Shown one piece after another: positions 22,960-56,559 of a stretch of 64,000 bases of DNA; position 1 is the stretch's first letter, and the number at the start of each line of letters is the position of its first letter. The DNA is from Nemertoderma westbladi (Eukaryota; Animalia; Xenacoelomorpha), in assembly GCA_032718475.1 (NCBI GenBank), contig JAUCBJ010008092.1, forward strand, positions 48,315 through 112,314, in the 5' to 3' direction. The notes beneath the pieces are model-generated. The model was not told the origin of the DNA. It saw only the letters and a program-made list of their open reading frames with translations, and did no database searches. The position numbers and the translations under genes were made by a program.

Positions 22960-25191
22960 TGATAAACAACCGCGACACCTATACTAACAGCAGAACTGTT
23001 GAACAGACAAATACCCGTTAATACCTTTCTGCCAACCTAATGAGCTCTCGCCTAACCAATAAGACACAAAGACTGCTCTACTGTTAAGTAAAGGGGATCA
23101 GGAGCGTGATATTACTAAATTGTAAAGGTTGCTAAATACAAAACCGCTACTTACCGTTAGATGGCGCTAATCTGCCGTCCGCTAATATAATTTACTAAAT
23201 TTACACGGCTCCTGCAAAATCGCTTGTTCCTTTCTCTACCGATTGCTCGATAGAGAGCTAACTGTTCGAATCTATGAGCCACGCGGGAATAACCAAAACA
23301 ATAAACCCGAGTCGGCTCCCTAAGCTTACTTAAGACGAGTGCGAGAGGCTTTGCACTCAGAGTATTCTTACGCCTAATTTTAACACTATTAAAGCACGCT
23401 ATTGCCTACGTCTTTTCTAATCGCGAATACTGAGGGTTCCCTAACGAAATGTATGAATGCGAGAATATTTAAATTATCAAAATGGTACAGTATTTGTCTC
23501 TACGTAAATAGTACCGCTCCGGGTCTAAACTTGCCTGCAGCTGGCTTTAGGCCAGCAAATTACTAGCGTGTTGTGCGTACCGAATAGTGCGATCTAGCTG
23601 ATTGCCCGCTAATGCAAATAACTGCTCAGCGTGAATAGTTTACAGTACCCTAATTATTACCTTAGCTACTCTCCGCTATGCTGCGTACTAATTCTTAATT
23701 TTACTAATCAATTACAGTCACAAATATGTAACAGCGTACTAATTACTAAGAGTTCCAGAATGCGTAATTCTAATTTATTACACAACAGGTTTCGCTAGTA
23801 ATAGCCTAAATTGCCGTATTACTTTGAACTAATCAGTAATTATTTGTTGTAACTAAGAAATAGAAATCAATCAAAGAGAAAGGGGCGCCTACCTAAACAT
23901 TCGTAATCATAGGCACACTTCAATAACACACCAATCAGCGTCAGCAATCACAGTTCGCAATTATGCAGTTAACTACTGTATAGCCCACAGTTGTGCGATT
24001 CACTATTCGTACTCCACACTCCACGCTGTAGTACGCGCAGGCCTCTCCCGGATACATCTAGGCTTCCTAAATAACCCGATTCCTGCCCCCCTAATACTAA
24101 ATAGAGACGAAACCTGGATCATCAGCCCCCTAATTACTGTACTGACGAATGGTCTGCGTGCTACAGTGTGAAACGCCCGACAGCAACGGTGACCCCCCGC
24201 CAGCGTTGCCCGCCTTTGAATCCTCCGCTCTCCCTTAGTCGCTCAACCCCCCGATGTGCCCACCGCCTACTGGCACCTTAGCCCTCCATTATGCTAATAG
24301 CTACCGTAGCATGCAACATCACAAAGTCTGACAGTCTCAGAAAATCCCTTAGGATTATTGCGTAGAATTGAATCACATAGAACCATTAACAAAAAGGGTA
24401 GAAATCATAGTTCCGATTGTAATTAGCAGTAATCGATAGGATTGATTGAGAAACGCAATTGAGAATAGTAGCACTAACAAATCATTTCAAGAAATTAATC
24501 GAAAAATAGCAAATTGCAGAAATACGCAAGATTATACTTCTAACTTAATGGTACAGGTAACAAACAGATTGAGTTGAGATTGAGGTAAATGAGGGATTGG
24601 AATTGGTACAGCTCTACTGGCAAGCCGCCAATTTATAGGTGATCCGAGAAGGGTGATGCAATAGGGTGACGCAATCGCTCTCCTATTGGCTCTCCAGTCC
24701 GCGCTAGCATTAGACCAACCTGGAAGCAGTTAGTCCAATAAGAAGGCCGGATTGTAGCCCTATTGCTCCCCTAACCCTCAAATTATTACCATATATGGTA
24801 ATGGATCATGTCCCTGGCTGCTGAATGGCCAGGACAGCGTCCCTATATGCTAGCCCTATTGAAGCTAATAACAGCAAGCACAAAATCCAGGGTCCAACTA
24901 ATCCAGGGTCCAACTAAACTTGCTACCCTGGAACTATCTACCTATATCCTAATACAAAATTACGTAGGTAGGGCTACATATTATACAAAATGGATGAATT
25001 CAAAATATATGGGCGTTTTGATTTCCCTATCTAAATATCACCGCGCTATTATGCCTTATCTAAAATATTATGCTGCACAACGGACTAATATTGCGTACAG
25101 TATAACGAACTAATATATTATACTGCGTAATGGACCAATATATTATACTGTATAATGGCTAATAATGTGTACAGCGCCATATACCGTAACA
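22960..25191 (-). repeat. 3' LTR (2232 bp) of BEL element 1
   Basis: Near-identical to 41519-43730 apart from small indels; CCAAT boxes about 24680-24740 and TATAAA about 24630 on minus. Confidence 0.95.
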
Positions 25192-27019
25192 CCGCTCCAA
25201 GGGAAATCATACAATGTTTCCCTCCAATTGTAGAAGAGTATAAGGTGATGTATACAAACAAAATAAATTTCTTTCAAATAATCTAAATACTTAATACTAT
25301 AATCCTACTATTTACAAAATATTGCTATAGATATTGCATAATGAATTGCATACAAATTAAATTTACAAATATTATCTCTCTCACTGTTTAACGATTATTA
25401 TATACAAATTAAATTTACAAAAAATGTTTCTCGTTCGTACTACATAATGATTACTACATACAAGATCAAATATATAAAAATTTTGCTAGGGCAAGTGAAA
25501 GGAGTAAGCCAAACCCGCAGGTTTGTCTCCCCAATCACTTCCTTCGCCTCTCTCATAATATAAATTCAAAACAGCTCAACTAGTGTATATGAGTCTAGTC
25601 GGATATTTCTAAAATGCTACAATATACATCAGAGCAACGATGATGTATATATCTAGAGTCTGTCGCCCTGTGATACGATGCATTATCGACCCGCTCCTGG
25701 GTTCTTCGGGCTCGCTCCTCTCTTTCGCCCCCTGCCCAGATACACCAGTCGTCTGCCAGTCGACTCTGTTGACGTGGTCCGTGAGGCGTCACTCCCCGGA
25801 ACCGGCGACGATGTTCCCTGAGCCCCGACAGATTCCCGACTCGTGCTTCTCCCTCGGCCTCGTCCCAATTGTCGTGCTCCCGTGGTCGCTTCTGCCAACT
25901 CTTCCTTCTGCAGTTGCACCGCTTTCGTCCTTCTGGGCTCCTCCCCGAGGCGCACCCGCGAGGCGGACGTGATCCACCACCCCTGGGGCCAGTCTGACTG
26001 ATGTTATTATCAGACCGGGCCGGGGGATGGCCCGATGCTTCCCGGGTTCAATTTTCAATTCCCCGATCACACTGGCACAGCTCGTCGAACGTGTAGCCAG
26101 ATGGGCGGCTACTGTCAACTTACTGTGGCCTGACTGTACATTGAGCCAACTCAGAGAGTCAACCGGCAGGTGGGCCAGTCGATAGCGATCGAGCACCAAG
26201 GTCGCCCTTGGGCCTAACCGACGGTCTTGTCCCATGTGGGCTTGCGCTACCCAACATGGAATTTTGACTCGTTTTCACCTGCCTCGCCTGCAGTATTGAA
26301 AAACAATACTGTCTTGCTCAAAAGCTAAGAACAAGTAACCACTTACCAGTCACTGTACACGTGTACTCAACAGATGTTCACAATATCAAGTACACAAATT
26401 GGACACATACCATGCACACACAGAGGACATAATCGGTAAAGACTAAAATCGGGGTCAAAATCAGGAGGGACTAGTTGTATCGACTAGAGAGAACATGAAA
26501 GTCGAGAGTACCTTATTTTGCCGTCAGGGCAAAATAACTTTGTGTGTACAAAGTATGCTGGGGCGCAGTAAAATATGGTCCTACTAATACCAGTGGCGAC
26601 TGAACCAACTGGCAAGGTTTCCCACACTCACTCGCAGTGGCCATACACACAATCACGTGTACTCACGTACCCACAGCAACAGAAAACTCAAAGGCCCAAA
26701 CAAATCCCAAAAACCAATCAGCTGAACATGGAGACAATAATATATAGTATCAAAAAAACGGAACAGCTGATGGCCAAAGGAACCCATCCGAGCCCCAAGT
26801 AAACTGTCACTGATCGCCCACATACAAACCACAGTTCACACCACATGACACCACAAATCACGCCATGCCACCACCCCTACTGTGTACAGGACTGGCAGTA
26901 CGGCAACATGCCGACTAGACGGAACCACGGCACCATGGCAATTCATGGTTCGCTAGACACGAGGGCCATCAGTATCTCCCTTGCACTTAGAAAAGGAAAT
27001 TTAACGTGCCCCCAGACCC

Positions 27020-30000
27020 TCACGAGTCAGCCGCCGCCTGTTGCGCGCACCCTATAGAGACCTCACCTCTTTCAGTACGCGCCTTCTCCGACGCTCCCTG
27101 CGCCTTGTGCTGCAACCTTTGCGCTTCTATAATAGAGTGATAGTGGTCGTCCTTGACTTGACGCTTGTCTCGGACCTCTCCTCCTGGTTCTTTCCGCGAG
27201 CCTTGAGCTCCAGCGGTCGACGTTGTGGTCGCTGCAATCCTCTGTTCCTGTATCCTCTCAGCGGTCAATGACCCCACTGGCACATGAGTCAACAAGAATT
27301 CGTTGCGGTATTGTATAGCCGCCATCCTCCAATCACCTCGTGCGCGTACCACTTTTCTAGTCTCCGAAAATACACCCTTCGTGATTCGATCGCAAATAGC
27401 AACGAAGTTCCAAGTGTATTTGTTATCCATATTCAACTGCCTGAAGTATTCTCGGACTACGATAACTCCAGTGTTCTGTGGAAGGTCTTGAGCAGTTAGG
27501 ATGAGCTCCTGATATTGTGGTAGCGACTGTAGATATGGCTCGTACGCAACATGTGATGGGTCTACCGCCCAAAATCCATATCCCGCCTTGAATGGTAACC
27601 AACGCATCTGCGCTTGAATATGGTAGTCAGCCACACTCTCCCACTTATCTAACATCTCCCGAAGTAGGTTAGCGCTATGGTTTTGGAAGGAATCATCTCG
27701 CAGCTGACATCTCGCGCTACAATGTCCCTTTACCCCACAATATCCACATTGAGAAATGAAGACGGTGCACGTGTGAAACGAATGGTCGGTCTCATTACAC
27801 CAACGACAGACCTTATGCGCCGCCTCTACTACCGCGTCGCACGACTTTAGATTGTGCCTTGTGCTGCCGCACAACTTGCACCTACGCGCTTGTGGAAACC
27901 AGGCCCTCTCGTATATGAGGTCTCCAATCGGTTTTGCACTTCCTTCTTTCCCAATGTCTAATACGATGTCGTCCTCTCCGGTCAGCGGTTGTCGATCCGG
28001 AACAAAGTAAACATCCTCGCCCTTGTCCTCTATCTCCAATATTTCCTCCCGCGTTCGTTTCGGATATGTCTTCTCCACCGGAAGATCTACTCCGAACACC
28101 TCTACTAACGTCTCCGGCCAGCCCTCCTTAACAGGTCTATCAGCCTCCGAGTGGAAGGGAGTACCAAACCCGCGGGTTTGATTCCCGAACCACTTCTCCA
28201 AAGCTTCTGGCGTCGGATATTCCATCGACGGTCGGTCTCCCAAATCTCCGATGTTCTGTCGATATACTCCTTCGAATATCGCTAATCCTCTCCTAACCAT
28301 CAACGTATTCTCTAACGATTGGTTGAAGAACGGGGTTAAGAAACGCTTCATCACGTCGGATTGGATTCCCCCTTTCGAGCGAACGTATTGATCTCCTCCG
28401 AATACCAATGGATGACGCTTCAAAACTCGCGCAACGATATCCGCTAATAAACAAGTCACCGTGTTCGACTCAAGCACCAAATAATATTGTAGCGACGCAC
28501 GGGGTGGCGCGCAAATGTTCCAATACACTAACGCTTACCGCTTGAAGTGGGATTTGAACTCCGCTCCTGGTGGCGTGTTGTATTCGCCATACGCCTCCTC
28601 GTATTTCTTCTGTGTCTTTAACTTAAAGTCCCAATTATACAATAAGTGTGCTATGAAGCCCATGCCAGTCTTGGAAGAGTTGGGATACTCCCTATAAATT
28701 CCAATATCCTGTGCCCATAGCAACAATAGCTTGGTGTCGACAAACGGTCTCGGCAATCTATCTTACAGATCAGTCATGGCGTTGAAGTCACTCTCCAAAT
28801 CGCTCTGGACTCCCGATCCCACCTTGACGTAATCTTGGTTGAGAATAGCCTCTCTAACTTTCTTGGGTAGCATCCTGGCGTCGATACGCTCCGCTCCGTG
28901 CATACCTCCTCGCCTGCATACCTCCAAAATCTGCTCCCTAGGATCCTTCCCCTTCCGATATTGTGTCGTTATGATGGGCTCTGGTCTCTCTCGATCCGCC
29001 CTCACACGCATAAACACATGAGTCACACCATCGGCCGCACGAATCTGAATGCACTTGCTAGTCAAACATTCTTGATGGGACCCTCCTTCATTGTCACAAA
29101 ACATCACCCTCCAATCTTGCAGTGATTCCTCCGTTTTCCTCCACTGACGCTGAATCTCGTCTGATGGGGTCCACATGCGCTCGATAGCCTTGTGGTCATC
29201 ATATCGGGTATAAGAACCCTTCCTCCTCAGCCACGTCTGGTCTACCTCCTCGTCATCTGGGAATGTAGCCACCGCAACCCATACCTTGATGTACTTATCC
29301 AACCATCCAAATAGTTTGCTCTCCTTCCCCGGAGTTCCAATCTTATCCAATGTGTCGTAATCTGTGATCTGCATTGGGACATCACGCAAGAACTTCGCGC
29401 ATAAAACTTCCCGTAGACAGTCAACGTTCCAATGATCCGCCATTCTTACCATCGGCAAGAATCGTATCGCTTCTCGCGACTCCGGATGATCTACTAATAT
29501 CGCAGGTTCGGTGCCATCGGAATAATACACCGGTCGGGGTTGAGATACGACCTGTGGAACAAATCCGGTCACTCTCCTCGTCTCCTCTTGATGTCTATCC
29601 GCGGCCTTATTATACTCCGCTATCCTGTTCTCGAATAACTCTTTCGCCTTCGCCGCTCGCTCCTCCTGCCGCAACGCGTCTATGTCGTCCTGATGCTCAG
29701 GCGTGAGGCTTCTCACTCGGTGAGGCGAAGTAAACGCAGTCCAGGGACTCGAGAGCTCCAAACCCGCGGGTTTGGTACCCGAGTCCCGTGCCGCTTCGCG
29801 CCGCGCCTCTAGATCCTTATAGGCTCGGTACAGTGAAATGGCCGCTGCCGTCTCTATCAAACTGGGTGTCGAACAGGGTTTAATCTCCGTATACGGATCT
29901 AATGTCGTAACGGTCGGCGTAATGGGTCTCGGAGGTCGCTTTCCGCTGAAGTCGATACTGATCATCGGGTTGCTCATCGGGTAACCTCCCTCGTTGTATC

Positions 30001-30430
30001 TAAGGAACTGGTGAGCTGGACATCGCGTTAATATCGGTTCTGGATGTTGCTCGTCTAGTCGGTCAGGAATCGCCACGTCTTGCTTGTTCATGCATTCACC
30101 ACACTTGTAGAACAGCTTGTACACGCTGAAGATTTTCGGTGTCTCCTGATCCTCGCCTCGAGTCCTCCGGTACAGATGCATTCCGTCGAACTGATCTCGG
30201 ACTGCAGGTAGAGGTTCTTCGTGTCGTAAATACATATTCATATGGTACAGTCGTGCGATCTCCTCATCCGGGTCTGCACTAATGTCACATACGTCCAAAG
30301 CGAAGTCGTAGGGATACCGAGTGCGATACTCTCTCTGCAAAACTTCCATCCGGTCCCCCAACGCTCTCATTCTTTCCCTCCGTAATTCCTTATCGTAAGT
30401 AGGTTTGTATTTCCCGTTTAGCTCCATCAC
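27020..30430 (-). pseudogene. BEL accessory gene (about 1135 codons), CxxC...CxxH motif and three CCHC knuckles, two in-frame TAA stops
   Basis: ORFs 28763-30430, 28535-28756 and 27020-28528 share a frame; knuckles CKLCGSTRHNLKSC, CRWCNETDHSFHTC, CGYCGVKGHCSARC; the homologue at 11.3-12.2 kb reads across both stop positions. Confidence 0.8.
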
Positions 30431-31303
30431 GGACCGCCCATGGTAGTAAACGTTAGAATCTTTACATCCTGGTCACGCGAATGGTAGCTACGCCTCCTCT
30501 CTGGCAGTAAATCCTCTGCGCGGTTGCGCTCTAATATCCTTCTCCATTATGCCCCGCGTATATACATATATATATCCCAATAAGTGCCGTTACGTAACCA
30601 ATTACACTGTGGGTAAATCAGTTAGATGTCGCCGAAGGACAGACCTCCCGAACCCTCCCGCCTTCCAGCAGTTCAGGTTCGACTCTCTAGATCCCGTCTC
30701 TTCCTAACTAACTATCCTCTAACCTATTCCCATGCATAGCGCAAAAACTTTGGAGATAAACTGGCCGTGACCAACTCACTTTTTGATGCCCAAACTACTC
30801 CCATTACTCGTACTAGACTACAGTAGTTAGAAAGGACTATAGCCACAATACTCGACTATACCAAACCCACAGGTTTGATAATCGAACATCACACATCACT
30901 GCAAACTACTGAGTGGGGTCCATGTACGCCTCTGGTGCTACTAACCTTTAGCACCTTAGTTGCACTGTTGGCACCAATCCGTGGAAGTTGCTAAACTCAA
31001 TTTACACTCCTACGTAATATAGCCATCACCATGGTTTCTAAATGCTATTTTCCAGGCTTCACGACTTTTCAAATTACTGTTTATCTATAGACGAATTCTA
31101 AAACGCGTCTATACACAGCGTCTGGAATTGTTTTGGGTTCACTTCTAATTTTTAAAATTTTTAATTTTCCAAAAATTTTGAAAATAAAATTTTGTTTTGA
31201 TACCCACCAGACATAACTCAACGCAAATCACCACAACCCCGCTCCTATGCATTTCCTAGTATTTGCATACGAGGAATGCATACGAAGTGAGTTGCGTCCA
31301 ACA

Positions 31304-34300
31304 CTAACTCTGTTTTGAGGCAGGAGACAAATTATAATCTCCCGTCTTGATGCGTGTCTCCTCTAATAACACGATATCTTGGACCGGTCTGTCCAAGGTG
31401 TGTAAACCATTAGTTTTACACTTTTTTGGGTGCGGACACTTGCACCTAATTTTCACAGTGACTGTGCGCACTATGTTTTGCACGTCTGGGTGTATGTGCA
31501 AGATCACTCCAGTCTCCCAATACTTTATCTTGACAATTGGCTCGGTTATCAGTACGTAATCTCCCTTTTGGAGACTCCGAACCGTTTTGTACCACTTTGA
31601 TCTGGTGGATATGGTGGGAAGATAATATTCCCGCCAATATTCCCAGAATGTGTACGCTACTAATTGTGTCACTTTCCAGCTTTTACGACTATATAGGTCG
31701 GCACTAATGGGTTCTGATGCCGGCACAAGAAACACTGGACTCTGCATTAGCAAATGATTCGGCGTTAATGCAACACCGTCTGGCAACATAGCTATCGGCC
31801 TCGAGTTTAATGTATGCTCGATTTCAATGAAAGCTGTAACCAGTTCGTCGTCGGTAAGTTGTTTGTTCACAGGCAATGTTTTGGCAATGGCCTGTTTTAC
31901 AGAGCGAACTAAACGCTCCCAACTTCCTCCTCTCCAAGGACTTTCTGGAGTATTAAATCTCCACTCTACTCTTTGCGGAAAAAGTGCTGCAGAAATTTCC
32001 TTATTCTGTGCTGCTTTGTGAGTCGCGTTCAACTCGCTATTCCCTCCGACAAAGTTTGTACCCTTATCGGAGTAGAACGCCTTTACTAGTCCTCTCCTGG
32101 CCATAAATCTCTTTAAGGCCAGGAGCAGAGATTTGGTCGACATGTCTGCCACACGCTCGATATGTATGGCTCTACTAGCCATGCATGTCAGTAGCAGACC
32201 CCATCGCTTGTGGGTCAGCCGTCCACTCTTTGCTTCAATCGGACCAAAACAATCCACCCCTGTGTTCATAAAGGGTGGGTCATATGCCTGCACTCTCGCT
32301 TCCGGGAGTTCAGCCATCTCCTGTTCCAATACTCTGGCGTTCACTCTCTTGCAAACCAGACAGGCATCATACATGGTGCCTACTGCCCTGCTTGGCTGCA
32401 ATAGAATGAATCGCTGTCTCGCTGCCGACAAACAGTGTAACTTTCCCGCGTGATGTAACCTCTTGTGTATATCCCATAGAATCGCTCTTTGCAATTCTAT
32501 TGGGTGACTAGGGATTATCACTGGGAACCGAAACTGTGAGTTTATGTCGACAGTCTGGATTCTCGATCTATGACAAATCAAACCCCTATGGATTAATGGA
32601 CTCCATTTTCTAAGGGGTTTATAGAGAACTGGTCGTTGAGCCGATAATAGATGGAATTCTTTTGGGAAGGCACACATTTGATAATTTTTCAAATGCTTTA
32701 ATTCCGCTTGATCAATCTCATCCTCTGTCAGAGGTTGTTTCAATTTCTGAATTCGCTCACTATTGGCGCTCGATGGTTCTCTCAAATGTTTCGAATGTTT
32801 TAAACAAAGGTACGAAACGTAGCGGCTTAACCACGCAGTTCTTTTACAAATTGTCAGCCAAGAGGCAGACGAATATAGTAATTTGTCATAAATACTACAT
32901 GGCTCTAATGCCAGCAACGGTTGTCCGCTAACTAATGGAAGTTTCGAATCCAAACCCGCAGGTTTGGAAACCAAAGGCTCCATTTTGTCGGTCATTTTCT
33001 GTCCGTCACTTACCAACTGTGACTCTGCTTTAGTCTGTAAGGGTGGTTTTATGTCATAACTTACCCTTCCTGACCTAGTAGTCACGTAAGTCTGTTGGTC
33101 TGACAGGTCTCCGGGCCGCTCCAATGACTCTTCAGGCCGCTCCAATGACTCTTCAGGCCGCTCCAATGACTCTTCAGGCCGCTCCAATGACTCTTCAGGC
33201 CGCTCCAATGACTTGAGTTTGGCTTTAGACTTTGTATTAGAAACTTTCTCCACCTTGACTTCTGCATCTTCAGGCATCGGATTGGTCACTATCTTTAGTC
33301 GCTCTGGCCAATGTTCCTGCGTCCTCGTTAGAAAATCAGGTCCATGCAACCAAAACTCCTGAGACTCTTCCTGACAGAATTCCGCCGGCATTGCACCTCT
33401 CGAAGTTATGTCGGCCGGGTTCAACACTCCCGGACAATGTCTCCATTGTTCCTTCGTCGAAAAGTCAACGATCTGAGCGCGTCTATTTGCCACAAATGTC
33501 TTTAGTGCAATATTGTCGGCCGCAATGTATACTAACACTAAGGATGCGTCCGTCCAATAGAATAAGGTCAATGTCGTGTCTAACTCCTCAATTATCTGCT
33601 TACTTACCTCGACCGAAACTACAGCCGCCTGTAACTCTGCATGAGGGACAGTCATGTATTTGACCGGCATTGTCTTTGATCTAGAAGCTACAAAGGCCGT
33701 CTCAAACTTGTCCTGACTCACCTCTCGGCGAAGGTAGGCTACCATACCAAAGCCGGTGTCACTTGCGTCACTGAACAGATGCAGTTCGAGATCAGCTGGA
33801 AATACCAGCTGATTCGGAAAGTAGGAACGGGGTACGTCTATGTTTTTCAATAGATGTAACTCGGCTTCCCACTCCCTCCACTGCTTTGCATGTATAGGAG
33901 ATATTGGTTCGTCCCACTCTACGTCGGACAACCAAATTTTCCTCATGCACGCTCGTGCCTGTAATATAACCGGACTGATAAAGTTCATCGGGTCAAATAG
34001 TCTACTTAATGTCGATAAGCAAATTCTCTTTGTCAAAACTTTGTCTGGGCTACTGGGCTCAAATCTAACTCTTACCTGGAACTTGTCTGAGTTCGGATTC
34101 CAAGCGAGTCCCAGTACTCGCGCCATGGGGATTGGTTCTACCCCCAATTCTATGTCTCCGCTCCCGCGATCTTTCACCGGGAACGACTCTAATAGGGCCT
34201 CCGAGTTTGTAGTGAACTTGGTCAGAGGAAAACCCCCTGTAGCCAAGCACTCTTGCAGGCCGTGAGCCACTTCTATGGCTTGTTCCGCCGTGTCCTTGGA

Positions 34301-37300
34301 CACCAATCCGTCGTCCATATAGAAGTTTCTCAAGATGGACTCGATAACCTCTACTGGGTACTTACCAATCTGGGCTGTTGCCGTTTTCTTTAGAACAAAC
34401 AGCGTGCCGTTTGGACTATCGCGGGCGCCAAATATCCTAACGTACATCTGGTATGTAACCACTGGGCCGGATAAGTCTTCATTCTCATACCAGAGAAAGT
34501 GAAGGCTATCCTGGTCTGCCTTACAGGCTCTTACCTGGTGGAACATCGCCTCGATGTCACAAGTAAATGCGAATCGCCGCTGTCTAAAACGTAACAGTAT
34601 TCCAATCAAATAATTATTCAGGTTGGGACCGTCCATCAACTCTGAATTCAGGGACATGCCTCTATAGACTGCTGCGCAGTCATTGACTACTCGGACTTTA
34701 TCTGGTTTGTCAGGGTGAGTCACATAGTGGTGTGGGAGGTAATAAGTCTGGTCTGTCACTAAGTCAGGGTCCTCTACCTTCCCAGCAAATCCCTTGGCGA
34801 AATAGTTGTTGATCTGGGTGCAATACTTCTCCCTAATGTCTGGATTCTTCAACAACCGAGCCCTTACTTTTAATCTTTTCAAGGCTAAGTTGTAGTTGTT
34901 CTCCAACTTAGGTGGTTGTCGACGCCACAACATTCCAACTTCAAAATGTCCAGTCGGTAGCAGACGTATGGTGTCTTCCATCATCTCCAGCGACCGTTTC
35001 TCATCAGTGGACATGACTAGGTCATATCCACCGGGTTCCATTGCGTCCCTATCCAGCCATTCGACGGTTCTGGCTCCTGTCTCGAGGTCCTGGCGTATCA
35101 ATTCCTTCTGTAATTCCTCCTCACTGTATTGGAAAATGTCGAGGTCTCGATATTTAGCCACTTGACCCTCCACTATGTCAGTATAAGTCAAAACGTTACT
35201 CAAATAGGTAGCGTGGGCCGCTGAACCAGACCCACGGGTCTGATAACAGTAGTCTTCGGGTTCACTATCTGTCCGGTCATTATGAAGTGGTTCCGACAAC
35301 CTAACATTATCGGGAATCAACTCCTCGTCCGACTCGCTAAAGTCACTATAGTGGTCAATACAGGTTCTCCTAAACTCGTCTATGTCTGGTGGTTCTACTA
35401 ACGGTGGTTGAGTTATAGGCTGTAATTCGTCATATCTGTCTATTGGCTTGTCGCCACCTGTAAACTCATAAGACATGGGTACTCTTGTATACCAACCTAA
35501 TATAGTCCTATGGGCATGCGGTCCATTGACATGCGGCTCAGCTGGTCTCGTTTCCCATATCTGGTGTGCGATCAGCTGTTCTGCACCAATTAACATAGAA
35601 ACATTCCTATAACCTACCTGATGTCTGGGTATCCTGAGCTTGTCAAAATACTCCTGTGCTATGGGACTCATCGGCGGCACCTTACCTAACTGCCTGCCGA
35701 ATTCCTTCATAGCTAGACACTTAAATCCGTCCAATGGCAAAGCTTTCCGTTCTTGTCGGGTATGCTGGTCTCTCGGAAGTAGGGAATCTAGTTCTACCGA
35801 AATTCTGTGTCCCTTGAGGTCACCTACCCCGTGCATAGACTTCAACTCTATTTGGATCTCCTCGGCGTCCTGGAAGCTAGAAACGGCTCTCGCCACTTCC
35901 TCGTCGATATACGATAATGTGGACGCAGTGTCCAACATCACATATATTCGCTTCGATCCCTTATCGCCAGTGAGTTTCACTGGAATCACGCTAAATATTT
36001 CCGACGTGGCCGATGATAAATACGTCCGTGCGCTGGTCGATGAACTATCCGCGGTGAAACCTTGGCAGGTCACTTCTCTCGCGCTAGACTCGCCATCCTC
36101 GTCCGACGAACCTGGTTGGTAACCATCGTCCTGAATGCCGGTATACGTATTCCTTCTTATCGATACGGGTTCTTTGCTCCCCTTCCTGTGAGGATTTCGC
36201 TGTAAGTAACGGTCCGTTGGGGTATGGAAATCCGCATGTAGCAACTTGTGATGTAGTCTGCCGCATTCCATGCATCCGTCCTTGCTGTTCGGGCACTGCC
36301 GCCGTACATGACCTGGCGCAAGACATGCCCAACAGGTGTCCAACGTCCGCACTTGAACTCTTCTCTGTTCCGAATTTAATTCTTTGAACCGTCTGCAACT
36401 ATCTAACTTATGGTCGTCAGATCTTACCTCCTTTAGTAAACAGTATTGGCAACCTACAAATCCATCCGGCAACTCCTGTTGCTTTAACCTAGGTCTATCT
36501 AACCGCTCACCTGACCATACTCGCGAGTATGATCTAAAGGCTGGGGTATTCGAATTATATCTGTCTACTGAGTTAAATGTCACAGTGGTCCTGTCATCGT
36601 CAAAACTTACCATAGACTTACCGGTAACAGGTTTAGACTCTCTCATATTCTCCTCTGAGAAGTTTGATTTCATCTCTGCTACTGCGTCTGTGGCTATCAT
36701 GTCATGAATATGCTGAAGTGTCAACACCTTACCTTGACCTTCCAACTTATTCTCTAATTTGCGCCATTTCTGTCTGTAACGCATGTTTAGACGTCTTATT
36801 ACACTCTTCAAAACTTCGGCGTGATCACCATGATGAGGTAGATTCACCGTCCTCAAGATGTCCAATGCGTTTGAAATAGCGTTCGCTAAGTTCAACAGCT
36901 CTAACGGAGTTGTAATCCTTCCGCCCTTACCCAAGTCTTCTACTATCGACTGCGCCATCTTGGTTTTATTCCCGTAGATGTCACTAAGCGTCTTCATTGC
37001 CAACTCAAATGCCCTTTCATTGCCGACGAAGTTGTCAGCAATAGCTCTCGGTTCTCGATGGAGCATCTGAAGCAAATAGTTGAACTTCTCGTTGGGAGTA
37101 AAGGTGCTGTTGGTTAGCTGCTCGTTGACATAGGTTTTGAATGTCCTCCAGTGCTTGTGGTTACCCATAAACTTCTGGGGTTGTTGCGTCGGCAGTCCTT
37201 GCCTAGCAGCAAACTTACCTATGTCCCTAAGGGTTGCGTCGTTCCGGGTTAACAAATGGTTTAGTTCCGCAGGGTTGTTAAGTCTGGTCCTTTCCCGGTG

Positions 37301-37366
37301 GTTCAAACTTACCTGCTCCGCGTCCGTCCTTCTTTCCTTATAGTTTCGGGACTTCTGACGTCTCAT
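31304..37366 (-). CDS. pol: BEL/Pao polyprotein: capsid (DUF1759-like), Cys/His knuckles, protease, RT, RNase H, integrase, DUF5641-like C-terminus
   Basis: FMGNHKHWRTFK; CWAC..H..C, CMEC..HH.LLH; LDTAS; DIEAMF...YMDD; LFSDAS; DCFGP, SDKGTNF, GGSWER; LTPNHLL, FWEYWREYYL. The frame is open upstream to about 37510. Confidence 0.95.
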   Translation of the reverse strand: MRRQKSRNYKERRTDAEQVSLNHRERTRLNNPAELNHLLTRNDATLRDIGKFAARQGLPTQQPQKFMGNHKHWRTFKTYVNEQLTNSTFTPNEKFNYLLQMLHREPRAIADNFVGNERAFELAMKTLSDIYGNKTKMAQSIVEDLGKGGRITTPLELLNLANAISNALDILRTVNLPHHGDHAEVLKSVIRRLNMRYRQKWRKLENKLEGQGKVLTLQHIHDMIATDAVAEMKSNFSEENMRESKPVTGKSMVSFDDDRTTVTFNSVDRYNSNTPAFRSYSRVWSGERLDRPRLKQQELPDGFVGCQYCLLKEVRSDDHKLDSCRRFKELNSEQRRVQVRTLDTCWACLAPGHVRRQCPNSKDGCMECGRLHHKLLHADFHTPTDRYLQRNPHRKGSKEPVSIRRNTYTGIQDDGYQPGSSDEDGESSAREVTCQGFTADSSSTSARTYLSSATSEIFSVIPVKLTGDKGSKRIYVMLDTASTLSYIDEEVARAVSSFQDAEEIQIELKSMHGVGDLKGHRISVELDSLLPRDQHTRQERKALPLDGFKCLAMKEFGRQLGKVPPMSPIAQEYFDKLRIPRHQVGYRNVSMLIGAEQLIAHQIWETRPAEPHVNGPHAHRTILGWYTRVPMSYEFTGGDKPIDRYDELQPITQPPLVEPPDIDEFRRTCIDHYSDFSESDEELIPDNVRLSEPLHNDRTDSEPEDYCYQTRGSGSAAHATYLSNVLTYTDIVEGQVAKYRDLDIFQYSEEELQKELIRQDLETGARTVEWLDRDAMEPGGYDLVMSTDEKRSLEMMEDTIRLLPTGHFEVGMLWRRQPPKLENNYNLALKRLKVRARLLKNPDIREKYCTQINNYFAKGFAGKVEDPDLVTDQTYYLPHHYVTHPDKPDKVRVVNDCAAVYRGMSLNSELMDGPNLNNYLIGILLRFRQRRFAFTCDIEAMFHQVRACKADQDSLHFLWYENEDLSGPVVTYQMYVRIFGARDSPNGTLFVLKKTATAQIGKYPVEVIESILRNFYMDDGLVSKDTAEQAIEVAHGLQECLATGGFPLTKFTTNSEALLESFPVKDRGSGDIELGVEPIPMARVLGLAWNPNSDKFQVRVRFEPSSPDKVLTKRICLSTLSRLFDPMNFISPVILQARACMRKIWLSDVEWDEPISPIHAKQWREWEAELHLLKNIDVPRSYFPNQLVFPADLELHLFSDASDTGFGMVAYLRREVSQDKFETAFVASRSKTMPVKYMTVPHAELQAAVVSVEVSKQIIEELDTTLTLFYWTDASLVLVYIAADNIALKTFVANRRAQIVDFSTKEQWRHCPGVLNPADITSRGAMPAEFCQEESQEFWLHGPDFLTRTQEHWPERLKIVTNPMPEDAEVKVEKVSNTKSKAKLKSLERPEESLERPEESLERPEESLERPEESLERPGDLSDQQTYVTTRSGRVSYDIKPPLQTKAESQLVSDGQKMTDKMEPLVSKPAGLDSKLPLVSGQPLLALEPCSIYDKLLYSSASWLTICKRTAWLSRYVSYLCLKHSKHLREPSSANSERIQKLKQPLTEDEIDQAELKHLKNYQMCAFPKEFHLLSAQRPVLYKPLRKWSPLIHRGLICHRSRIQTVDINSQFRFPVIIPSHPIELQRAILWDIHKRLHHAGKLHCLSAARQRFILLQPSRAVGTMYDACLVCKRVNARVLEQEMAELPEARVQAYDPPFMNTGVDCFGPIEAKSGRLTHKRWGLLLTCMASRAIHIERVADMSTKSLLLALKRFMARRGLVKAFYSDKGTNFVGGNSELNATHKAAQNKEISAALFPQRVEWRFNTPESPWRGGSWERLVRSVKQAIAKTLPVNKQLTDDELVTAFIEIEHTLNSRPIAMLPDGVALTPNHLLMQSPVFLVPASEPISADLYSRKSWKVTQLVAYTFWEYWREYYLPTISTRSKWYKTVRSLQKGDYVLITEPIVKIKYWETGVILHIHPDVQNIVRTVTVKIRCKCPHPKKCKTNGLHTLDRPVQDIVLLEETRIKTGDYNLSPASKQS
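33113..33213 (-). repeat. 21-bp tandem repeat in pol (ESLERPE, about 5 copies)
   Basis: GGCCGCTCCAATGACTCTTCA repeated in frame between RNase H and integrase. Confidence 0.9.
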
Positions 37367-37484
37367 TTCTTCCTCTTCATCGCTTGACTTGGTGTCAGTC
37401 CTTAGCGCTCGCGATGGTTTGCGCGCCGAGGCCCTGACCCAAGCCTCCTGTATAAATTTCTCGGCCGAATTTTCGAAATTGGGA

Positions 37485-39611
37485 TTATGGATATTTGGGA
37501 CAGGCGGCCTTCCTTACCTGAGGTCTATGTGGTATAGTCTCCTCCGATATGCGTACTCGTTGACTAGGCTGAACTTTATCTAACTCAGGCCTGCTAGGAT
37601 TTGAATTACTTCTTACCTGGGCTGCTTCCTTTAACCGTAGGTTGCTAAGCATGTCTGTTATAGGTTGGATGTGTGGCGATATAGCTTGCGCTAAACTAGC
37701 ACTTAACTCATCCCTCGTAATAAATTCCTGGCTAGGGTTATGTTGTATAGTCGGCTCTATCTGAGTAATCATCCGCTGTCTCTCATATGATCCCTCTTCC
37801 GGTTTAACCCGAAAGTTCTCCGTCGAACTGGGTCGGCGCTCCGTCCACGTATTCCAAACCCGCGGGTTCGGTTCGCCCAATACTCGTCCTGTCGGAGTTT
37901 CTCTAAACTCTCCGTTGTCTCGTTCGGTGTATAGTGGTGCGGTGTTCCGATGACGTAGATCCTGGGCGATGGGTGAAGCACTTATAGCAACTGGCGTGCG
38001 ATAGGTAGAGAATGGTTTAGCGATCCGTGTACTCGTAATAGCTGGACCGGGTATAGGAATTCTGGTCGTCGTCGACTCGCGTATAGTCGGAGTTCTCGCT
38101 TCCTGTTCGGCCTTCTGCAGTGCGAACAGTTCTCGCAACTCTGTCCCTACACTCGCCCCACATTCTTCGAACATTCGCATCCCCTTCTCGGCGATTTCGT
38201 TCGCCTTCCTAGTCCGTTCTTCGCTCTCTAAACTTAATCTCGCACTTTCCAACTGCGCCAGTTTACGTTCTTCTTCTTCCCTCGCTCGTCTCGCTGCGCC
38301 CTCTTCTTCCACACGCGCCTTTTCTTCATACAACATCTGTCGCTCCTTCTCGATCTCGAGTTCGCGTTCTTTGCGCTCGCGTTCGAGCTGGAGTTTGCGT
38401 TCCTTGCGTTCGCGTTCGAGCTTGAGTTCGCGTTCCTTGCGTTCGCGTTCCGCTTGCTCGCGCTTACCTTTCTCTTCCAACTCTCGCAACTTTGCGTCTA
38501 ACTTACGTGTGCGCTCCCGTTCCCGCTCGGCTTCCTTCCGTGCTTCCGATGCACGCAAAACTTCCGCCTGTTGTTCGTCCAGTCGGCGTCTTCTCTCCTC
38601 CGCCGAGTTGTGAGAAACAAGGGATCTAGCACATATAACCTTCCCTCGCGCGTGACTAACCTGGGAATCGCCACTGTCTCTGGATGCGTCGTCGGGTGGA
38701 GTCAACGTCCTCTGTTGAATGTTCTCCATCGTCGGTAGCACCTGGCCTGGTACCACCACTCCATTCTGCATCAGCCAGCTAGTAACTTCCCTCTGATAAC
38801 GGCGCTCTTCTTTATCTTGGATCTCTTCCCGCTCCACTAAGTCTCTCAACTCTGCGTCACTCACCTGAGTCGCCTGCGTTTGTGTTGCCCATAGCAGCCA
38901 GTTCTCCGTCCTAACTCGTCGGAATTGCTCCGATAACTCGCGGTGCTCCAACAAGGCTGCTAAAACCCTGTCGTAAATCCTCGTCGCCACGTCGCTCGAC
39001 TGAGACTCTACTGCCTTCTTCGCTAGGACTGCAAGCTCCTCCGTCTGCTTGAATAACGCTGAGTTATATCCTCTTCTAATCTCTACTAACTCTACCCTTC
39101 CGATGTTCGCTGAGTCAGCTAACATCTTCCTTACCTTGTCCGTCGTCCGAGTTATATGTCCGGCATGCGCGCGAAGTTTCTTCTTTATCGCAATATCAAG
39201 TTCTCTCTCACTTACCTGACTCACACTCGGTGGACTTGAAGGATTATTTCGGGAACTACGGGTACTCCTAACAGCCGTTGGGACCACGGCACTTACCATA
39301 CCCACAGATCTGGAAACCGGGCTCCGGGCTCTCGCTTCTGCTACACTACCCTCCCTATCACTCACCTCTGGTTGGGTTGCTGTACAATCCTTCCTTACAG
39401 TAGCGGTAGGGGATCCTAATACTATTACCTCTGGTTGTTGTTCTTCCTCACTGGTCACTGTCTCGTCCTCCTGTTCACTTACGTCAGCGTCGCTCGCTGC
39501 GTCGTCATAGTCGGCATTGTCGTCAACAGTAATATTTACGCTATCGTCAGTCGGCGGTCCAGCCGCCGTCTCATAGCTGTCCTCTAGTGCCTCCTTGTCT
39601 GAGACACTCAT
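37485..39611 (-). CDS. gag: BEL gag N-terminal ORF (acidic region, E/R/K coiled coil)
   Basis: 708-aa ORF directly upstream of pol; LRAHAGHITR motif and long charged coiled coil; +1 offset to the pol frame. Confidence 0.85.
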   Translation of the reverse strand: MSVSDKEALEDSYETAAGPPTDDSVNITVDDNADYDDAASDADVSEQEDETVTSEEEQQPEVIVLGSPTATVRKDCTATQPEVSDREGSVAEARARSPVSRSVGMVSAVVPTAVRSTRSSRNNPSSPPSVSQVSERELDIAIKKKLRAHAGHITRTTDKVRKMLADSANIGRVELVEIRRGYNSALFKQTEELAVLAKKAVESQSSDVATRIYDRVLAALLEHRELSEQFRRVRTENWLLWATQTQATQVSDAELRDLVEREEIQDKEERRYQREVTSWLMQNGVVVPGQVLPTMENIQQRTLTPPDDASRDSGDSQVSHARGKVICARSLVSHNSAEERRRRLDEQQAEVLRASEARKEAERERERTRKLDAKLRELEEKGKREQAERERKERELKLERERKERKLQLERERKERELEIEKERQMLYEEKARVEEEGAARRAREEEERKLAQLESARLSLESEERTRKANEIAEKGMRMFEECGASVGTELRELFALQKAEQEARTPTIRESTTTRIPIPGPAITSTRIAKPFSTYRTPVAISASPIAQDLRHRNTAPLYTERDNGEFRETPTGRVLGEPNPRVWNTWTERRPSSTENFRVKPEEGSYERQRMITQIEPTIQHNPSQEFITRDELSASLAQAISPHIQPITDMLSNLRLKEAAQVRSNSNPSRPELDKVQPSQRVRISEETIPHRPQVRKAACPKYP

Positions 39612-40483
39612 AGTCTAATAATGTTTGCCTTCCGGCAAAAATATCTCGCAAAAGTTCGAGATATAATTATGATTTAACCGAAATACGGTCAAATTATTTG
39701 TCAAATAATCAGTTGGTCCAAAATGTCAAATAAATTCGCAATGCAATATTGTGAATTTAATGAGGTATAGTTATAGCAAATACTAGCACAATATTTAAAC
39801 AAAAATATTATTATATAGCTACTATAGCAATTTAAATACCGGTATAGCACAAAATAACTTTGAATCTAATACAAAATATTCAAAATAAACTTGCCACCCG
39901 AATAATTCCAATTTTGCATATATAGCTCTAATCAACGTAATTTTAATTTTAAATATTATATGTATCCACTAGCGCGTGGCTACATCTTCGGGTTGCGACT
40001 CTCTCTAACTCTCTCTCTAACTTGAGCGATTCAAAAAACCATGGCCGGCTAAACCTAAATAACCTAACTAATAAATTGAGTTCAGCTTCGCAGTTAAACA
40101 ACCGATAATTTTTTACTGCTTCCACAAACACTATGGTGCCAACAGAACAACTAACCTTGTTTGCTGTGAGATTCCACGTCCGCGTCCAAAGATTCAGGCC
40201 CTTCGCTGATTGCAAACCGAACCCGCAGACCCACACGAACCCCAAACTCAGAAGTTCCGTCTTGCCATGTATCTCCAGATGGTATAAAATAACTAAGCGG
40301 TTACCTAACATACCCGTACAAAACTCTAGAATTTTACAAAATAATTTTGACCGAAACTGAATTCTCGCAAACCTAGCTAAAATTTTCAAAAAACTTACTA
40401 ATTACAATTTGCCCTAAGGCCTAAGGAACTGCTGTATTCGCAATTAGCAAAAACGCACTACCGTACATCCACTGTATGCAGTA

Positions 40484-41107
40484 CACGTTCGTGGGGACTT
40501 CGCGCAGCACGTAGTCGGCAAGCCTTGGCATACGGTTCATATAGAGCAAATGGGGCATGTCTAGTTTGAACCCCATATCCCATGCTATAAATGTATTCAT
40601 TCGATATACAATCATATGTTAATCCGCTAGGTGGTGTCAAATTGTTATTCTGCAATTTTGTACTTACCAGTGCAGCACTGTACAGCAGTACCGTACCGGT
40701 AGGCCTATGTCATTACTTCTGAGTCTCTAGCGGATCTCCAATTAAATGTCTTAACTTTTCAATTTCGTAAAAGATAGACTTCATGATTCTCTACAGGCCA
40801 CCAAAATTTCAGCTCAGGAAAATGAGGCCTTCCCGAGAAATTTAACATTTTCTAAAAACCACAAAATCTGTCGTAGCTGACGTCAGACTGCATGATTTTT
40901 CACCAAACTTTACAAACTTTCTAAACTTTCTCTCTACTACTTGCCTACTAAGTTTGGTTCAATTCCGAACCAGCGATGCCGAGAAATTCGCGTTCAAACA
41001 TTTACCAGACAGACGGACAGACAGACGGACAGACAGACAGACGGACATGCCCCATTTACCCTATATGAACCGTATGCCAAGGCTCGCCGACTACGTGTCT
41101 CGCCCCA
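40484..41107. mobile_element. Non-autonomous DNA element with about 55-bp inverted repeats and (GACA/GACG)n tract in the BEL leader
   Basis: CACGTAGTCGGC...GGGGCATGTC (40508-40561) inverted at 41044-41096; similar ends recur at about 48471 and 51620-51690. Resembles MITE or Helentron/DINE-type elements. Confidence 0.6.
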
Positions 41108-41518
41108 CAGTAAGTAAAACAGTACACCAACCTAACAGCCTAATGATACTGTGTGTGGTACGGCAAAACAAATGTCCCTTCTACCGTACGCAGTAATAGC
41201 AATCAGCCTAATGTACTACTGTACTATTGTACGCGACCAGTAAATACAGTAATCTAAACTAGCAGCCTAAGAATACCTCAATGTTCTACTGTACGCTGTA
41301 GCCTACAGCAGACAATATCACGTGCTCTAACTTATTACTTAACTACTGCAGTAACAGTGATCCTACCCAACAGCCTAAGAATACACTCTTGACTGCTGCA
41401 AGCAACAGCCAATAAAAACGCGTATTACTGATACGAAGTATCAGTAATCTAAACTAACAGCCTAAGAATACTCTATTTACTGTACGCTACAGCCTACAGC
41501 AAACAAAATGCGTATTAC

Positions 41519-43730
41519 TGATAAACAACCGCGACACCTATACTAACAGCAGAACTGTTGAACAGACAAATACCCGTTAATACCTTTCTGCCAACCTAAT
41601 GAGCTCTCGCCTAACCAATAAGACACAAAGACTGCTCTACTGTTAAGTAAAGGGGATCAGGAGCGTGATATTACTAAATTGTAAAGGTTGCTAAATACAA
41701 AACCGCTACTTACCGTTAGATGGCGCTAATCTGCCGTCCGCTAATATAATTTACTAAATTTACACGGCTCCTGCAAAATCGCTTGTTCCTTTCTCTACCG
41801 ATTGCTCGATAGAGAGCTAACTGTTCGAATCTATGAGCCACGCGGGAATAACCAAAACAATAAACCCGAGTCGGCTCCCTAAGCTTACTTAAGACGAGTG
41901 CGAGAGGCTTTGCACTCAGAGTATTCTTACGCCTAATTTTATCACTATTAAAGCACGCTATTGCCTACGTCTTTTCTAATCGCGAATACTGAGGGTTCCC
42001 TAACGAAATGTATGAATGCGAGAATATTTAAATTATCAAAATGGTACAGTATTTGTCTCTACGTAAATAGTACCGCTCCGGGTCTAAACTTGCCTGCAGC
42101 TGTCTTTAGGCCAGCAAATTACTAGCGTGTTGTGCGTACCGAATAGTGCGATCTAGCTGATTGCCCGCTAATGCAAATAACCGCTCAGCGTGAATAGTTT
42201 ACAGTACCCTAATTATTACCTTAGCTACTCTCCGCTATGCTGCGTACTAATTCTTAATTTTACTAATCAATTACAGTCACAAATATGTAACAGCGTACTA
42301 ATTACTAATTGCGTAATTCTAATTTATTACACAACAGGTTTCGCTAGTAATAGCCTAAATTGCCGTATTACTTTGACCTAATCAGTAATTATTTGTTGTA
42401 ACTAAGAAATAGAAATCAATCAAAGAGAAAGGGGCGCCTACCTAAACATTCGTAATCATAGGCACACTTCAATAACACACCAATCAGCGTCAGCAATCAC
42501 AGTTCGCAATTATGCAGTTAACTACTGTATAGCCCACAGTTGTGCGATTCACTATTCGTACTCCACACTCCACGCTGTAGTACGCGCAGGCCTCTCCCGG
42601 ATACATCTAGGCTTCCTAACTAACCCGATTCCTGCCCCCCTAATACTAAATAGAGACGAAATCTGGATCATCAGCCCCCTAATTACTGTACCGGCGAATG
42701 GTCTGCGTGCTACAGTGTGAAACGCCCGACCGCAATGGTGACCCCCCGCCAGCGTTGCCCGCCTTTGAATCCTCCGCTCTCCCTTAGTCGCTCAACCCCC
42801 CGATGTGCCCACCGCCTACTGGCACCTTAGCCCTCCATTATGCTAATAGCTACCGTAGCGGCGCATGCAACATCACAAAGTCTGACAGTCTCAGAAAATC
42901 CCTTAGGATTATTGCGTAGAATTGAATCACATAGAACCATTAACAAAAAGGGTAGAAATCATAGTTCCGATTGTAATTAGCAGTAATCGATAGGATTGAT
43001 TTGAGAAACGCAATTGAGAATAGTAGCACTAACAAATCATTTCAAGAAATTAATCGAAAAATAGCAAATTGCAGAAATACGCAAGATTATACTTCTAACT
43101 TAATGGTACAGGTAACAAACAGATTGAGTTGAGATTGAGGTAAATGAGGGATTGGAATTGGTACAGCTCTACTGGCAAGCCGCCAATTTATAGGTGATCC
43201 GAGAAGGGTGATGCAATAGGGTGACGCAATCGCTCTCCTATTGGCTCTCCAGTCCGCGCTAGCATTAGACCAACCTGGAAGCAGTTAGTCCAATAAGAAG
43301 GCCGGATTGTAGCCCTATTGCTCCCCTAACCCTCAAATTATTACCATATATGGTAATGGATCATGTCCCTGGCTGCTGAATGGCCAGGACAGCGTCCCTA
43401 TATGCTAGCCCTATTGAAGCTAATAACAGCAAGCACAAAATCCAGGGTCCAACTGAACTTGCTACCCTGGAACTATCTACCTATATCCTAATACAAAATT
43501 ACGTAGGTATGGCTACATATTATACAAAATGGATGAATTCAAAATATATGGGCGTTTTGATTTCCCTATCTAAATATCACCGCGCTATTATGCCTTATCT
43601 AAAATATTATGCTGCACAACGGACTAATATTGCGTACAGTATAACGAACTAATATATTATACTGCGTAATGGACCAATATATTATACTGTATAATGGCTA
43701 ATAATGTGTACAGCGCCATATACCGTAACA
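41519..43730 (-). repeat. 5' LTR (2212 bp) of BEL element 1
   Basis: Copy of 22960-25191, abutting the ACTTT TSD. Confidence 0.95.
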
Positions 43731-54257: not shown

Positions 54258-55364
54258 TTGCACGCGGGCTAGTGTCCCGAGTCAGGGGGCTAGGCCTACT
54301 GTCCGGAGTCAGGAGACTAAGCCTACTGTCCGGAGTCAGGGGGCTACTGTTGTGATCTTGTCAAGGAGGGGGGTGTTTGGTAGGGGCTGGAAGGGCTGGT
54401 GTCTGGAGGGCCACTGTCCAATGGGCTATTGTTCGAGGGGGCTAATTGTCCTCTAACTCTATGTATATTTCAAGCAAAAAAAGGTGTTCAGAAAAAGGTT
54501 CAGGTGCGCGAAGAAGTCAGATTGACTCTGATTTCCAGATGGTATCCATTTTCGATAGAACTACCCATGTCTATGCAGGTAGGTACTGGAAGTCGTCAAC
54601 TTTCCATATTTAATTATTATCAAATACAAGTGGTCAAGTATCCATTACCATCAATAATTAAAAGCGTGTTATGAGACCCCTTACAATACCCTTACTCGCC
54701 CCATAAATATTAATCATTAATTAAAAGTCATGTATTCGGTCTTGATAAATTTATATGGAATTCAACTTATTCAGCAGCCGTTTCCACTTTGTTCCGTATA
54801 AGTTTTGCATTATGCTAGCGTATTTGTTAGCGGATCCATACCGCTGCACACCATCTACCGAGATAATGGGGAACAGGGTGATTTACGAATCACCCACAGG
54901 TATCCAATATCCAATATAAATGAGGCGATGTGATGTTAAGCTGGGAGATGGTTAACAATTCATTTCAGGGGAGAAGATAGCATAGGGCCAAAGGAACATG
55001 GAATGACACGAGAGGGGGAAAAACCTAACCAATGGGAGGGCCACACATGGCATGTATAACGTGTATCCACTATCCATTGGTCGGTCACCATGTAGGTAGG
55101 ACTGTGATAAGTTTCCATGTACTGTAGTTTCCATGCAGTTTCCATACATATACAGTATGTTACCCAATATCAATGTTAAGTCGGCTATTATCTACTGTGG
55201 ATGTTGGACGGTTTTTGACCATCGTCGCCTAGTACTTACTGATTGTGCTGTGATCCGTTTACCGGTACTTATATATATATATCAGCTATTATGTACAACG
55301 ATAAACCAATAACTCTTGCTCTACATTGGCCTACGGCCTTTTCAGCCTTTAAAGTTACTAGGGC

Positions 55365-56259: not shown

Positions 56260-56559
56260 TGTTCGCGGTATTTCAACTTTTCATAACGCGAGTTGAATAT
56301 TTTTTGTATTTATTTAAAATTGATTATTCCGATATTACTACTGGGTGCGGGACCATGGGTTTTGGGCACATTCAATGAACTGGGGGGGGATTGATGGGCG
56401 AACTTTGGGGCAACTTACAGGGTACGGGAATAATTTCATAGTTATAAGGGCCAGGGGTGGGAGGCAAAGTTAAGCAGTATTCAGGTTAGCCTGAGTACTA
56501 TTAGGCCCTGGCCAACTTCCTGCTGCCTGTAGGGGTGGATTTGGTAATGCGCCAGGCCT

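Follow-up and report, generated by a model that had tools for sequence, protein, structure and literature searches.

The giant BEL/Pao element and its third gene

We analysed 64,000 nucleotides of the genome of Nemertoderma westbladi (GenBank assembly GCA_032718475.1, contig JAUCBJ010008092.1, positions 48,315 to 112,314 of the forward strand); this whole stretch is called the window, and coordinates count from its first letter. On its minus strand lies a giant long terminal repeat (LTR) retrotransposon of the BEL/Pao group, which carries behind gag-pol a third gene that we call ORF3 (open reading frame 3; Table 1). ORF3 is a real, selected, non-env accessory gene of a giant BEL/Pao family, with a probable nuclease fold and a triple zinc knuckle.

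The element is a BEL/Pao LTR retrotransposon by its LTR ends, its target duplication, its Pao-type domains and the order gag, protease, reverse transcriptase (RT), RNase H, integrase; the viral contig search gave no relative. Within the gag-pol ORF we noted, in order, DUF1759 (Pfam E 2e-9), a CCHC knuckle, a protease with LDTAS, an RT with YMDD, Peptidase_A17 (RNase H; E 4e-38), an integrase and DUF5641 (E 3e-16). With 13 mismatches over 2,206 aligned bases, the two LTRs are 99.4% identical, so the insertion is young. A spacer of 0.76 kb, with a TATA-like run inside it, separates pol from ORF3. BEL/Pao elements usually have a length of 4.2-10 kb and LTRs of 0.2-1.2 kb (PMC3118150).

An earlier note on this DNA had described one frame of about 1135 codons downstream of an intact pol and in the same sense. 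The long frame is there, on the minus strand and behind an open gag-pol, but it is not open in this copy: TAA codons interrupt it at 28765 and 28537, and when it is read from an earlier ATG, which extends it to the length given in Table 1, two more stops follow at 30490 and 30475. This copy of ORF3 is a pseudogene. The motifs of the earlier note, CGEC...CPAH near the N-terminus and three consecutive CX2CX4HX4C knuckles, were both found. In a search of the PDB the knuckles resemble those of retroviral nucleocapsid and of Lin28 (best E 0.001), while two-row profiles of the N-terminal part had no PDB match. We also agree with the earlier note that there is no evident signal peptide or transmembrane helix. 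No hydrophobic segment was found in ORF3, the best 19-residue Kyte-Doolittle mean being 1.34, and the only furin-like motif, at residue 1126, sits within a charged tail. ORF3 thus shows none of the features of an envelope protein (signal peptide, fusion peptide, transmembrane anchor). The description of a non-env accessory gene with nucleic-acid-binding knuckles is supported by these motifs and by the lack of a hydrophobic segment.

Table 1. Positions in the window of the BEL/Pao element, of ORF3 and its parts, and of ORF3 homologues
Feature	Position	Strand	Description
BEL/Pao element, whole	22960..43730	minus	20,771 bp; TG...CA ends; 5-bp target duplication ACTTT
5' LTR	41519..43730	minus	2,212 bp
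3' LTR	22960..25191	minus	2,232 bp; short purine-rich tract (TTGGAGCGG) just before
First gag ORF	37485..39614	minus	709 codons, stop-free; 29-nt overlap with next frame
gag-pol ORF	31304..37513	minus	2,069 codons, stop-free
Candidate splice donors GTAAGT	40667 and 40398	minus	consensus, in leader
Predicted splice acceptor	30607..30625	minus	branch point CTAAC, then a few pyrimidines and CAG; ORF3 ATG 60 nt further on
ORF3	27020..30547	minus	1,175 codons from ATG at 30547; four in-frame stops in this copy
C-x2-C-x23-C-x2-H (CGEC...CPAH), putative zinc site	30011..30103	minus	N-terminal; kept in homologue at 55368
Probable DEDD/DnaQ-type 3'-5' exonuclease domain	28440..29110	minus	motifs, profile alignment
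Three CX2CX4HX4C knuckles	27880-27839, 27808-27767, 27748-27707	minus	motif
Knuckles and conserved tail (R-W-x5-G and L-P-x-Y blocks)	27380..27880	minus	also present in P0001, in P0002 and in the 10997-10300 homologue
Decayed homologue, N-terminal third only	55362..56296	plus	56% over 80 residues, 26% over 220 residues; E 3e-30 (55368-56263)
Decayed homologue in another element	10300..12523	minus	nuclease-like domain, knuckles, tail; frameshifted

Sister copies and purifying selection

Sister copies were read from contigs of public DNA runs (X1, X2, X3 and others) aligned to the ORF3 region; rare variants are lost in such contigs, and other individuals may have been sampled. The family that bears ORF3 is abundant, with 9,284 (X1) and 4,381 (X3) contigs over 7 kb. 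Single family contigs have depths of 7,700-9,400, alongside divergent ones at 20-45, figures which are not a copy count. At the stop site 28537 the runs X1, X2 and X3 have another letter at 100% of depth, at 28765 they have one at 100%, 99.5% and 100%, and at 30475 and 30490 another letter stands at 100% in all four runs compared. Given that all four sites read differently in 99.5-100% of depth, the stops are private to this copy.

The variants among the other copies are nearly all silent. Between 28400 and 28900 we classed all 18 variants at a level of at least 15%, none of them an indel. Twelve of these vary among the other copies, and every one of the 12 is synonymous, where 36% would be expected for transitions (P 4e-6). 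The remaining six are near-fixed differences from this copy (three synonymous, one replacement and the two stop sites). In the C-terminal region (27041-27935), 18 variants are listed and 11 of the 12 polymorphic ones are synonymous (P 4e-5). In each region the near-fixed differences (6/18) were counted apart from the polymorphic sites, and the figures for the C-terminal region come from 40 of 590 variant rows, selected by program. The 12 indels listed, with 110 others not among them, all lie outside ORF3. Since the stops are private and 12 of 12 sites are synonymous, the gene of the family is a single open frame under purifying selection, as the earlier note had expected of the past from conserved blocks between divergent copies.

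This copy departs from that pattern in two ways. ORF3 has four stops in 1,175 codons, compared with none in the 2,778 codons of the gag frames and pol (P 0.008), and the six near-fixed differences from its sisters in 501 bp compare with 1.5 expected from the LTR divergence (P 0.004). The excess of stops and of differences suggests that ORF3 had decayed before the last insertion.

We also observed a variant in X1, X3 and X5 that skips 329 bases (30073-30401), with two other letters between, at a contig depth of 1,350 in X1 and 2,742 in X3. A manual count puts the net loss at 327 bases, or 109 codons, which is in frame and removes the C-x2-C half of the zinc motif, so there seems to be an amplified sub-lineage that keeps the ORF3 frame while losing the N-terminal zinc domain. 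A further run, X4, is labelled as a different organism and only tentatively taken to be RNA; it has two ORF3 contigs (749 and 741 nt, ~98% identity) within 27830-30033.

An exonuclease-like middle domain

A HMMER scan of 1.84 billion proteins with the C-terminal 504 residues of ORF3 gave two matches, P0001 (E 2e-12) and P0002 (E 2e-4). In each case the similarity lies in the knuckles and tail, and each is an unnamed singleton on a short contig. P0002 is colinear with ORF3 over the nuclease and knuckle parts (27% identity; E 0.003 outside the knuckles).

Three motifs in this domain recall those of the DEDD exonucleases. Exo I is D-N-E (29095-29087), in VMFCDNEG; Exo II is a D (28801-28799), in K-V-G-x4-D-L / QSDL and followed by P-F-V-D-T; and an Exo III-like Y-x3-E is found in Y-L-V-L-E (28483-28469, with the E at 28471). 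D-L at Exo II is common to ORF3, P0002 and the window homologue. P0002 has the DEDDy pattern, with D-T-E (in IVTIDTES), D and Y-M-F-N-D; its Y-x3-D occurs in P0002 only, ORF3 and the window homologue having Y-x3-E. Neither the Exo II D nor the Exo III E has a variant at a level of at least 15% among the copies, so both represent the state of the family.

For profile comparison, we took exonuclease domains of bacterial RNase D and PolA proteins as controls and aligned a family profile of four rows to them. With 23 controls, hhalign gave a probability of 55%, E 1.2e-4 and a score of 34.8, which is above 60/60 column shuffles (maximum 17.7). With seven controls the probability was 29% and the score 31.0, above 100/100 shuffles (maximum 20.0). 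The local block covers Exo II and puts its catalytic D in register with the invariant D of the controls, and in the global alignment the D-x-E is also in register with the control Exo I (DTE). Among leads from the Atlas, P0001 lies near proteins with PF01612 and zf-CCHC (0.86), and residues 40-320 of P0002 lie near RNase_T (0.85) and Rotifera clusters (0.83, 0.82). Based on these motifs and alignments, we consider it probable, on moderate support, that the middle domain has a DEDD-type 3'-5' exonuclease fold.

Several observations weigh against this assignment. The bounds of the domain were picked by eye once the motifs had been seen, the local match spans 47 columns at 55%, and in the global alignment Exo III is out of register with a probability of 5%. 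Pfam, NCBIfam, PHROG and PDB gave no exonuclease match for ORF3, P0001 or P0002 taken singly, nor did PDB for a three-row profile, and a hidden Markov model of the 23 controls found ORF3 only at E 15 among 700 targets. The Atlas scores are all below 0.9, were obtained on homologues rather than on ORF3, and name different Pfam families, although of one superfamily. As for the motifs, Exo I D-N-E is the reading of this copy, the Exo III acid is E where canonical enzymes have D, the Exo I D is G in the window homologue, and the Exo I E is lost in P0001. Because of the E at Exo III, ORF3 is not a canonical DEDDy enzyme, and with the losses at Exo I in homologues this makes catalysis uncertain. Single-sequence AlphaFold models reached pLDDT (predicted local distance difference test) values of 35 and 34, and Foldseek with VIA-align on the second returned only noise. 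We rejected a PDB match to rotavirus VP4 (E 0.014, 59 residues) as chance since it was common to no homologue search.

Homologues inside and outside the window

The earlier note had placed divergent homologues of ORF3 elsewhere in the window. The N-terminal one was recovered almost exactly as described (55365-56259 in the note). It is followed by GC-rich tandem repeats, and a second BEL element begins 2 kb further. For the homologue given as 7768-12523, similarity to ORF3 holds at 12155-10644 on the minus strand (E 2e-14, 3e-8 and 3e-3). The 7768 end is plausible, since a 2.26-kb insertion with TTAA ends (8065-10323) interrupts the homologue at 10323 and an open frame continues to its left. 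No N-terminal zinc domain was seen in the homologue at 10300-12523. With two decayed homologues in the window, the ORF3 gene must be old. The ORF placed at 63500 in BEL element 2 does exist (63476-64000; 1.2 kb behind pol, 175 residues to the window end, no Pfam match), but its first 175 residues have no detectable similarity to ORF3 (best blastp E 23); it is possibly a second kind of accessory gene.

Outside the window, P0001 (L001:79-2025) begins with a degenerate nuclease-like part and carries the module of triple knuckle plus tail twice in tandem. Its 3.7-kb contig is without pol and was the sole locus in the metagenome contig search (209 candidates); the searches of viral contigs and of genome contigs gave no locus. 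Word-index protein searches likewise found none for residues 630-1060 (4,645 candidates), for residues 425-720 among shorter proteins (790) or for a two-row alignment (7,999).

Several other features of the window were noted. A non-autonomous element with 162-nt internal repeats and TTAA-CCC ends, which we take to be piggyBac-like, occurs twice in inverted orientation, at 8065-10323 and 14542-16104, one copy inside the ORF3 homologue and the other inside a Penelope-like element (13763-16850; RT and GIY-YIG by eye, no Pfam match on the RT piece). We had considered the homologue at 10-12 kb as cargo of one long inverted-repeat element, and rejected this because the arms are these separate insertions. 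The Penelope-like element, 1.2 kb distant from where the decayed homologue starts, points away from it, with no sign that they belong together. Just ahead of the gag of BEL element 2 are two beta-rich open frames (57586-58298), one of 186 residues, with no match in Pfam, and one of 63 residues up to 58298. In the giant element, no standard TGG primer-binding site was seen behind the 5' LTR (41333-41518), where there are instead imperfect 90-nt repeats. Just beyond this LTR two long overlapping frames run over a 90-nt tandem array (43682-46155) with no convincing Pfam match. Rfam and ARAGORN scans of the window gave no match.

Possible function of ORF3

Our tentative reading, to which we give somewhat less than even weight, is that ORF3 is the third gene of a giant BEL/Pao family and likely encodes an RNA-binding protein with a DEDD-type 3'-5' exonuclease fold that would act in trans on RNA ends, most likely blunting small-RNA silencing of the host. 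The protein could be expressed from a spliced, env-like subgenomic mRNA joining one of the leader donors to the acceptor at 30607; these sites are predictions from pattern matches. Its knuckles would grip single-stranded RNA and place the nuclease fold at 3' ends, where it might trim or cap the ends of PIWI-interacting RNA (piRNA) or small interfering RNA guides or their precursors. The protein would act in trans as a shared good, and therefore single copies could lose ORF3 and still be copied.

What points to action in trans is the history of this copy. If ORF3 decayed before the last insertion, the gene would be dispensable in cis and yet selected in the family, as one would expect if its product were shared in trans among copies, for instance as a counter-silencing factor. 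These statistics are post hoc and come from one copy, and they are limited by the rare variants lost in contigs and by runs that may represent other individuals; these points, and the 400 N-terminal residues of ORF3 that have no assigned function, count against the proposal. Counter-defence proteins are known from few animal retrotransposons. A silencing suppressor is our best guess, and its precedents are the DEDDy ORF3s of rotifer retroelements (PMC5408684) and the exonuclease (ExoN) of arenaviruses, which suppresses immunity (PMC7968707). An RNA export or splicing regulator, which the earlier note had also suggested, has no specific support. A bolder version, which we regard as doubtful, is that the knuckle-guided 3'-5' RNase is a trans-acting weapon of the giant lineage against piRNAs, enabling very high copy number with individual copies cheating, and that the cassette of nuclease and knuckles is mobile across unrelated classes of retroelement in several animal groups.

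It is also conceivable, although unlikely, that ORF3 works as an active exonuclease in the element's own replication, being packaged by way of its knuckles and trimming genomic RNA, primer or cDNA ends, or proofreading the RT, and so sustaining an 18.5-kb genome. This rests on the same evidence for the fold, and the likeness of the knuckles to those of nucleocapsid and Lin28 suits a packaged protein. The element is about twice the usual BEL/Pao size (PMC3118150), ExoN is tied to genome size in large nidoviruses (PMC7968707), and 3'-end processing was the first proposal for the ORF3s of rotifer retroelements (PMC5408684), although in the accounts consulted no rotifer element that carries such an ORF is called giant. 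A copy with four stops in ORF3, LTRs that are almost identical and an open gag-pol suggests copying without an ORF3 of its own; the packaged protein could, however, come from other copies.

We consider it equally unlikely that the nuclease fold has lost all or nearly all catalysis and that ORF3 serves as an RNA adaptor by which unspliced RNA is transported, exported or packaged. Maelstrom, EXD1 and Egalitarian are examples of inactive DEDD-type proteins. The change from D to E at Exo III in both families of the window and the loss of Exo I acids in the window homologue and in P0001 would fit such a protein, and inactive RNA-binding derivatives of the DEDD fold exist (PMC5408684). ORF3 nevertheless retains three of the acids and a conservative E, P0002 retains all four and the tyrosine, and the G at Exo I in the window homologue may reflect decay since that homologue is a decayed pseudogene.

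That the middle domain is no exonuclease at all, its motifs having arisen by chance in an unrelated zinc-knuckle RNA-binding protein, is quite improbable. It would explain why every library search was negative and why the profile match is short and at 55%, but the three motifs follow the expected order and spacing context, the canonical set is present in a homologue, shuffled profiles score far lower, and two Atlas leads point toward one superfamily. Lastly, the chance capture of a host gene, or a divergent env, as the env position and the predicted splice acceptor ahead might suggest, is very unlikely given the purifying selection across copies and the three divergent, mobile-looking versions within 64 kb, and env itself is largely refuted by the lack of a hydrophobic segment and by CCHC knuckles of intracellular type.

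Selection on the exonuclease ORF3s of rotifers could not be shown (PMC5408684). Here there is an abundant family in a different superfamily, in an element twice the usual size, with clear purifying selection on an exonuclease-like ORF3. The question of function has therefore become testable, with anti-silencing set against the upkeep of a long genome as by the ExoN of coronaviruses. We suggest that surveys of BEL elements that expect no more than 15 kb overlook a class of giant ones.

Comparison with known systems

The earlier note did not recognise the protein family. This no longer holds in full, since the middle domain probably has a DEDD-type exonuclease fold and exonuclease ORF3s are known from other retroelements, but for BEL/Pao none was found: a literature search gave none, Repbase, Dfam, GyDB and subscription journals lying outside its scope; the words BEL and Pao are absent from the rotifer ORF3 paper (PMC5408684), and the word exonuclease is absent from a BEL/Pao survey with an expected length range of 2-15 kb (PMC3118150).

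The closest parallel is in Ty3/gypsy and Athena elements of rotifers. In bdelloids, ORF3s of the DEDDy exonuclease type occur in the LTR elements Juno and Vesta and are shared with Athena/Terminon (PMC5408684, PMC6431247); Penelope-like elements share the rotifer ORFs. As in Juno and Vesta, ORF3 is an exonuclease-like ORF behind pol, in the place of env, without a transmembrane segment and with an altered acidic motif. As a lead only, Rotifera clusters are among the Atlas look-alikes of the P0002 domain. In rotifers the motif reads DEED, with no demonstration of activity and no significant departure from neutrality (PMC5408684). In contrast, the motif of our ORF3 is D-E-D-E by alignment, and the family is abundant, with strong purifying selection on ORF3. 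The carrier is BEL/Pao and not Juno, Vesta or Athena, and the protein, a multi-domain one of 1,175 residues, combines an N-terminal zinc motif with three CCHC knuckles.

The rest of the element is like other BEL/Pao elements in its gag with DUF1759 and CCHC, protease, RT, Peptidase_A17, integrase, DUF5641 and TG...CA LTRs, and unlike the usual ones in its 20.8 kb, its 2.2-kb LTRs and an extra gene that is not env. Among cellular proteins, the domain resembles RNase D and the PolA proofreading domain in the D-x-E of Exo I, a helix-strand block ending in the Exo II D, and the D-T that follows. WRN, EXD2 and Mut-7/Nibbler are further cellular DEDDy exonucleases. ORF3 differs from cellular DEDDy enzymes in falling below every library cut-off, in Y-x3-E at Exo III, in its fusion to knuckles and in ~35 extra residues from Exo I to Exo II. 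Viral ExoN, which proofreads in nidoviruses and suppresses immunity in arenaviruses, is of DEDDh type and comes from RNA viruses; like the probable nuclease fold of ORF3, it joins a DEDD domain and zinc sites in a parasite with an RNA genome, a functional analogy for both the anti-silencing and the replication reading, for which we claim no homology (PMC7968707).

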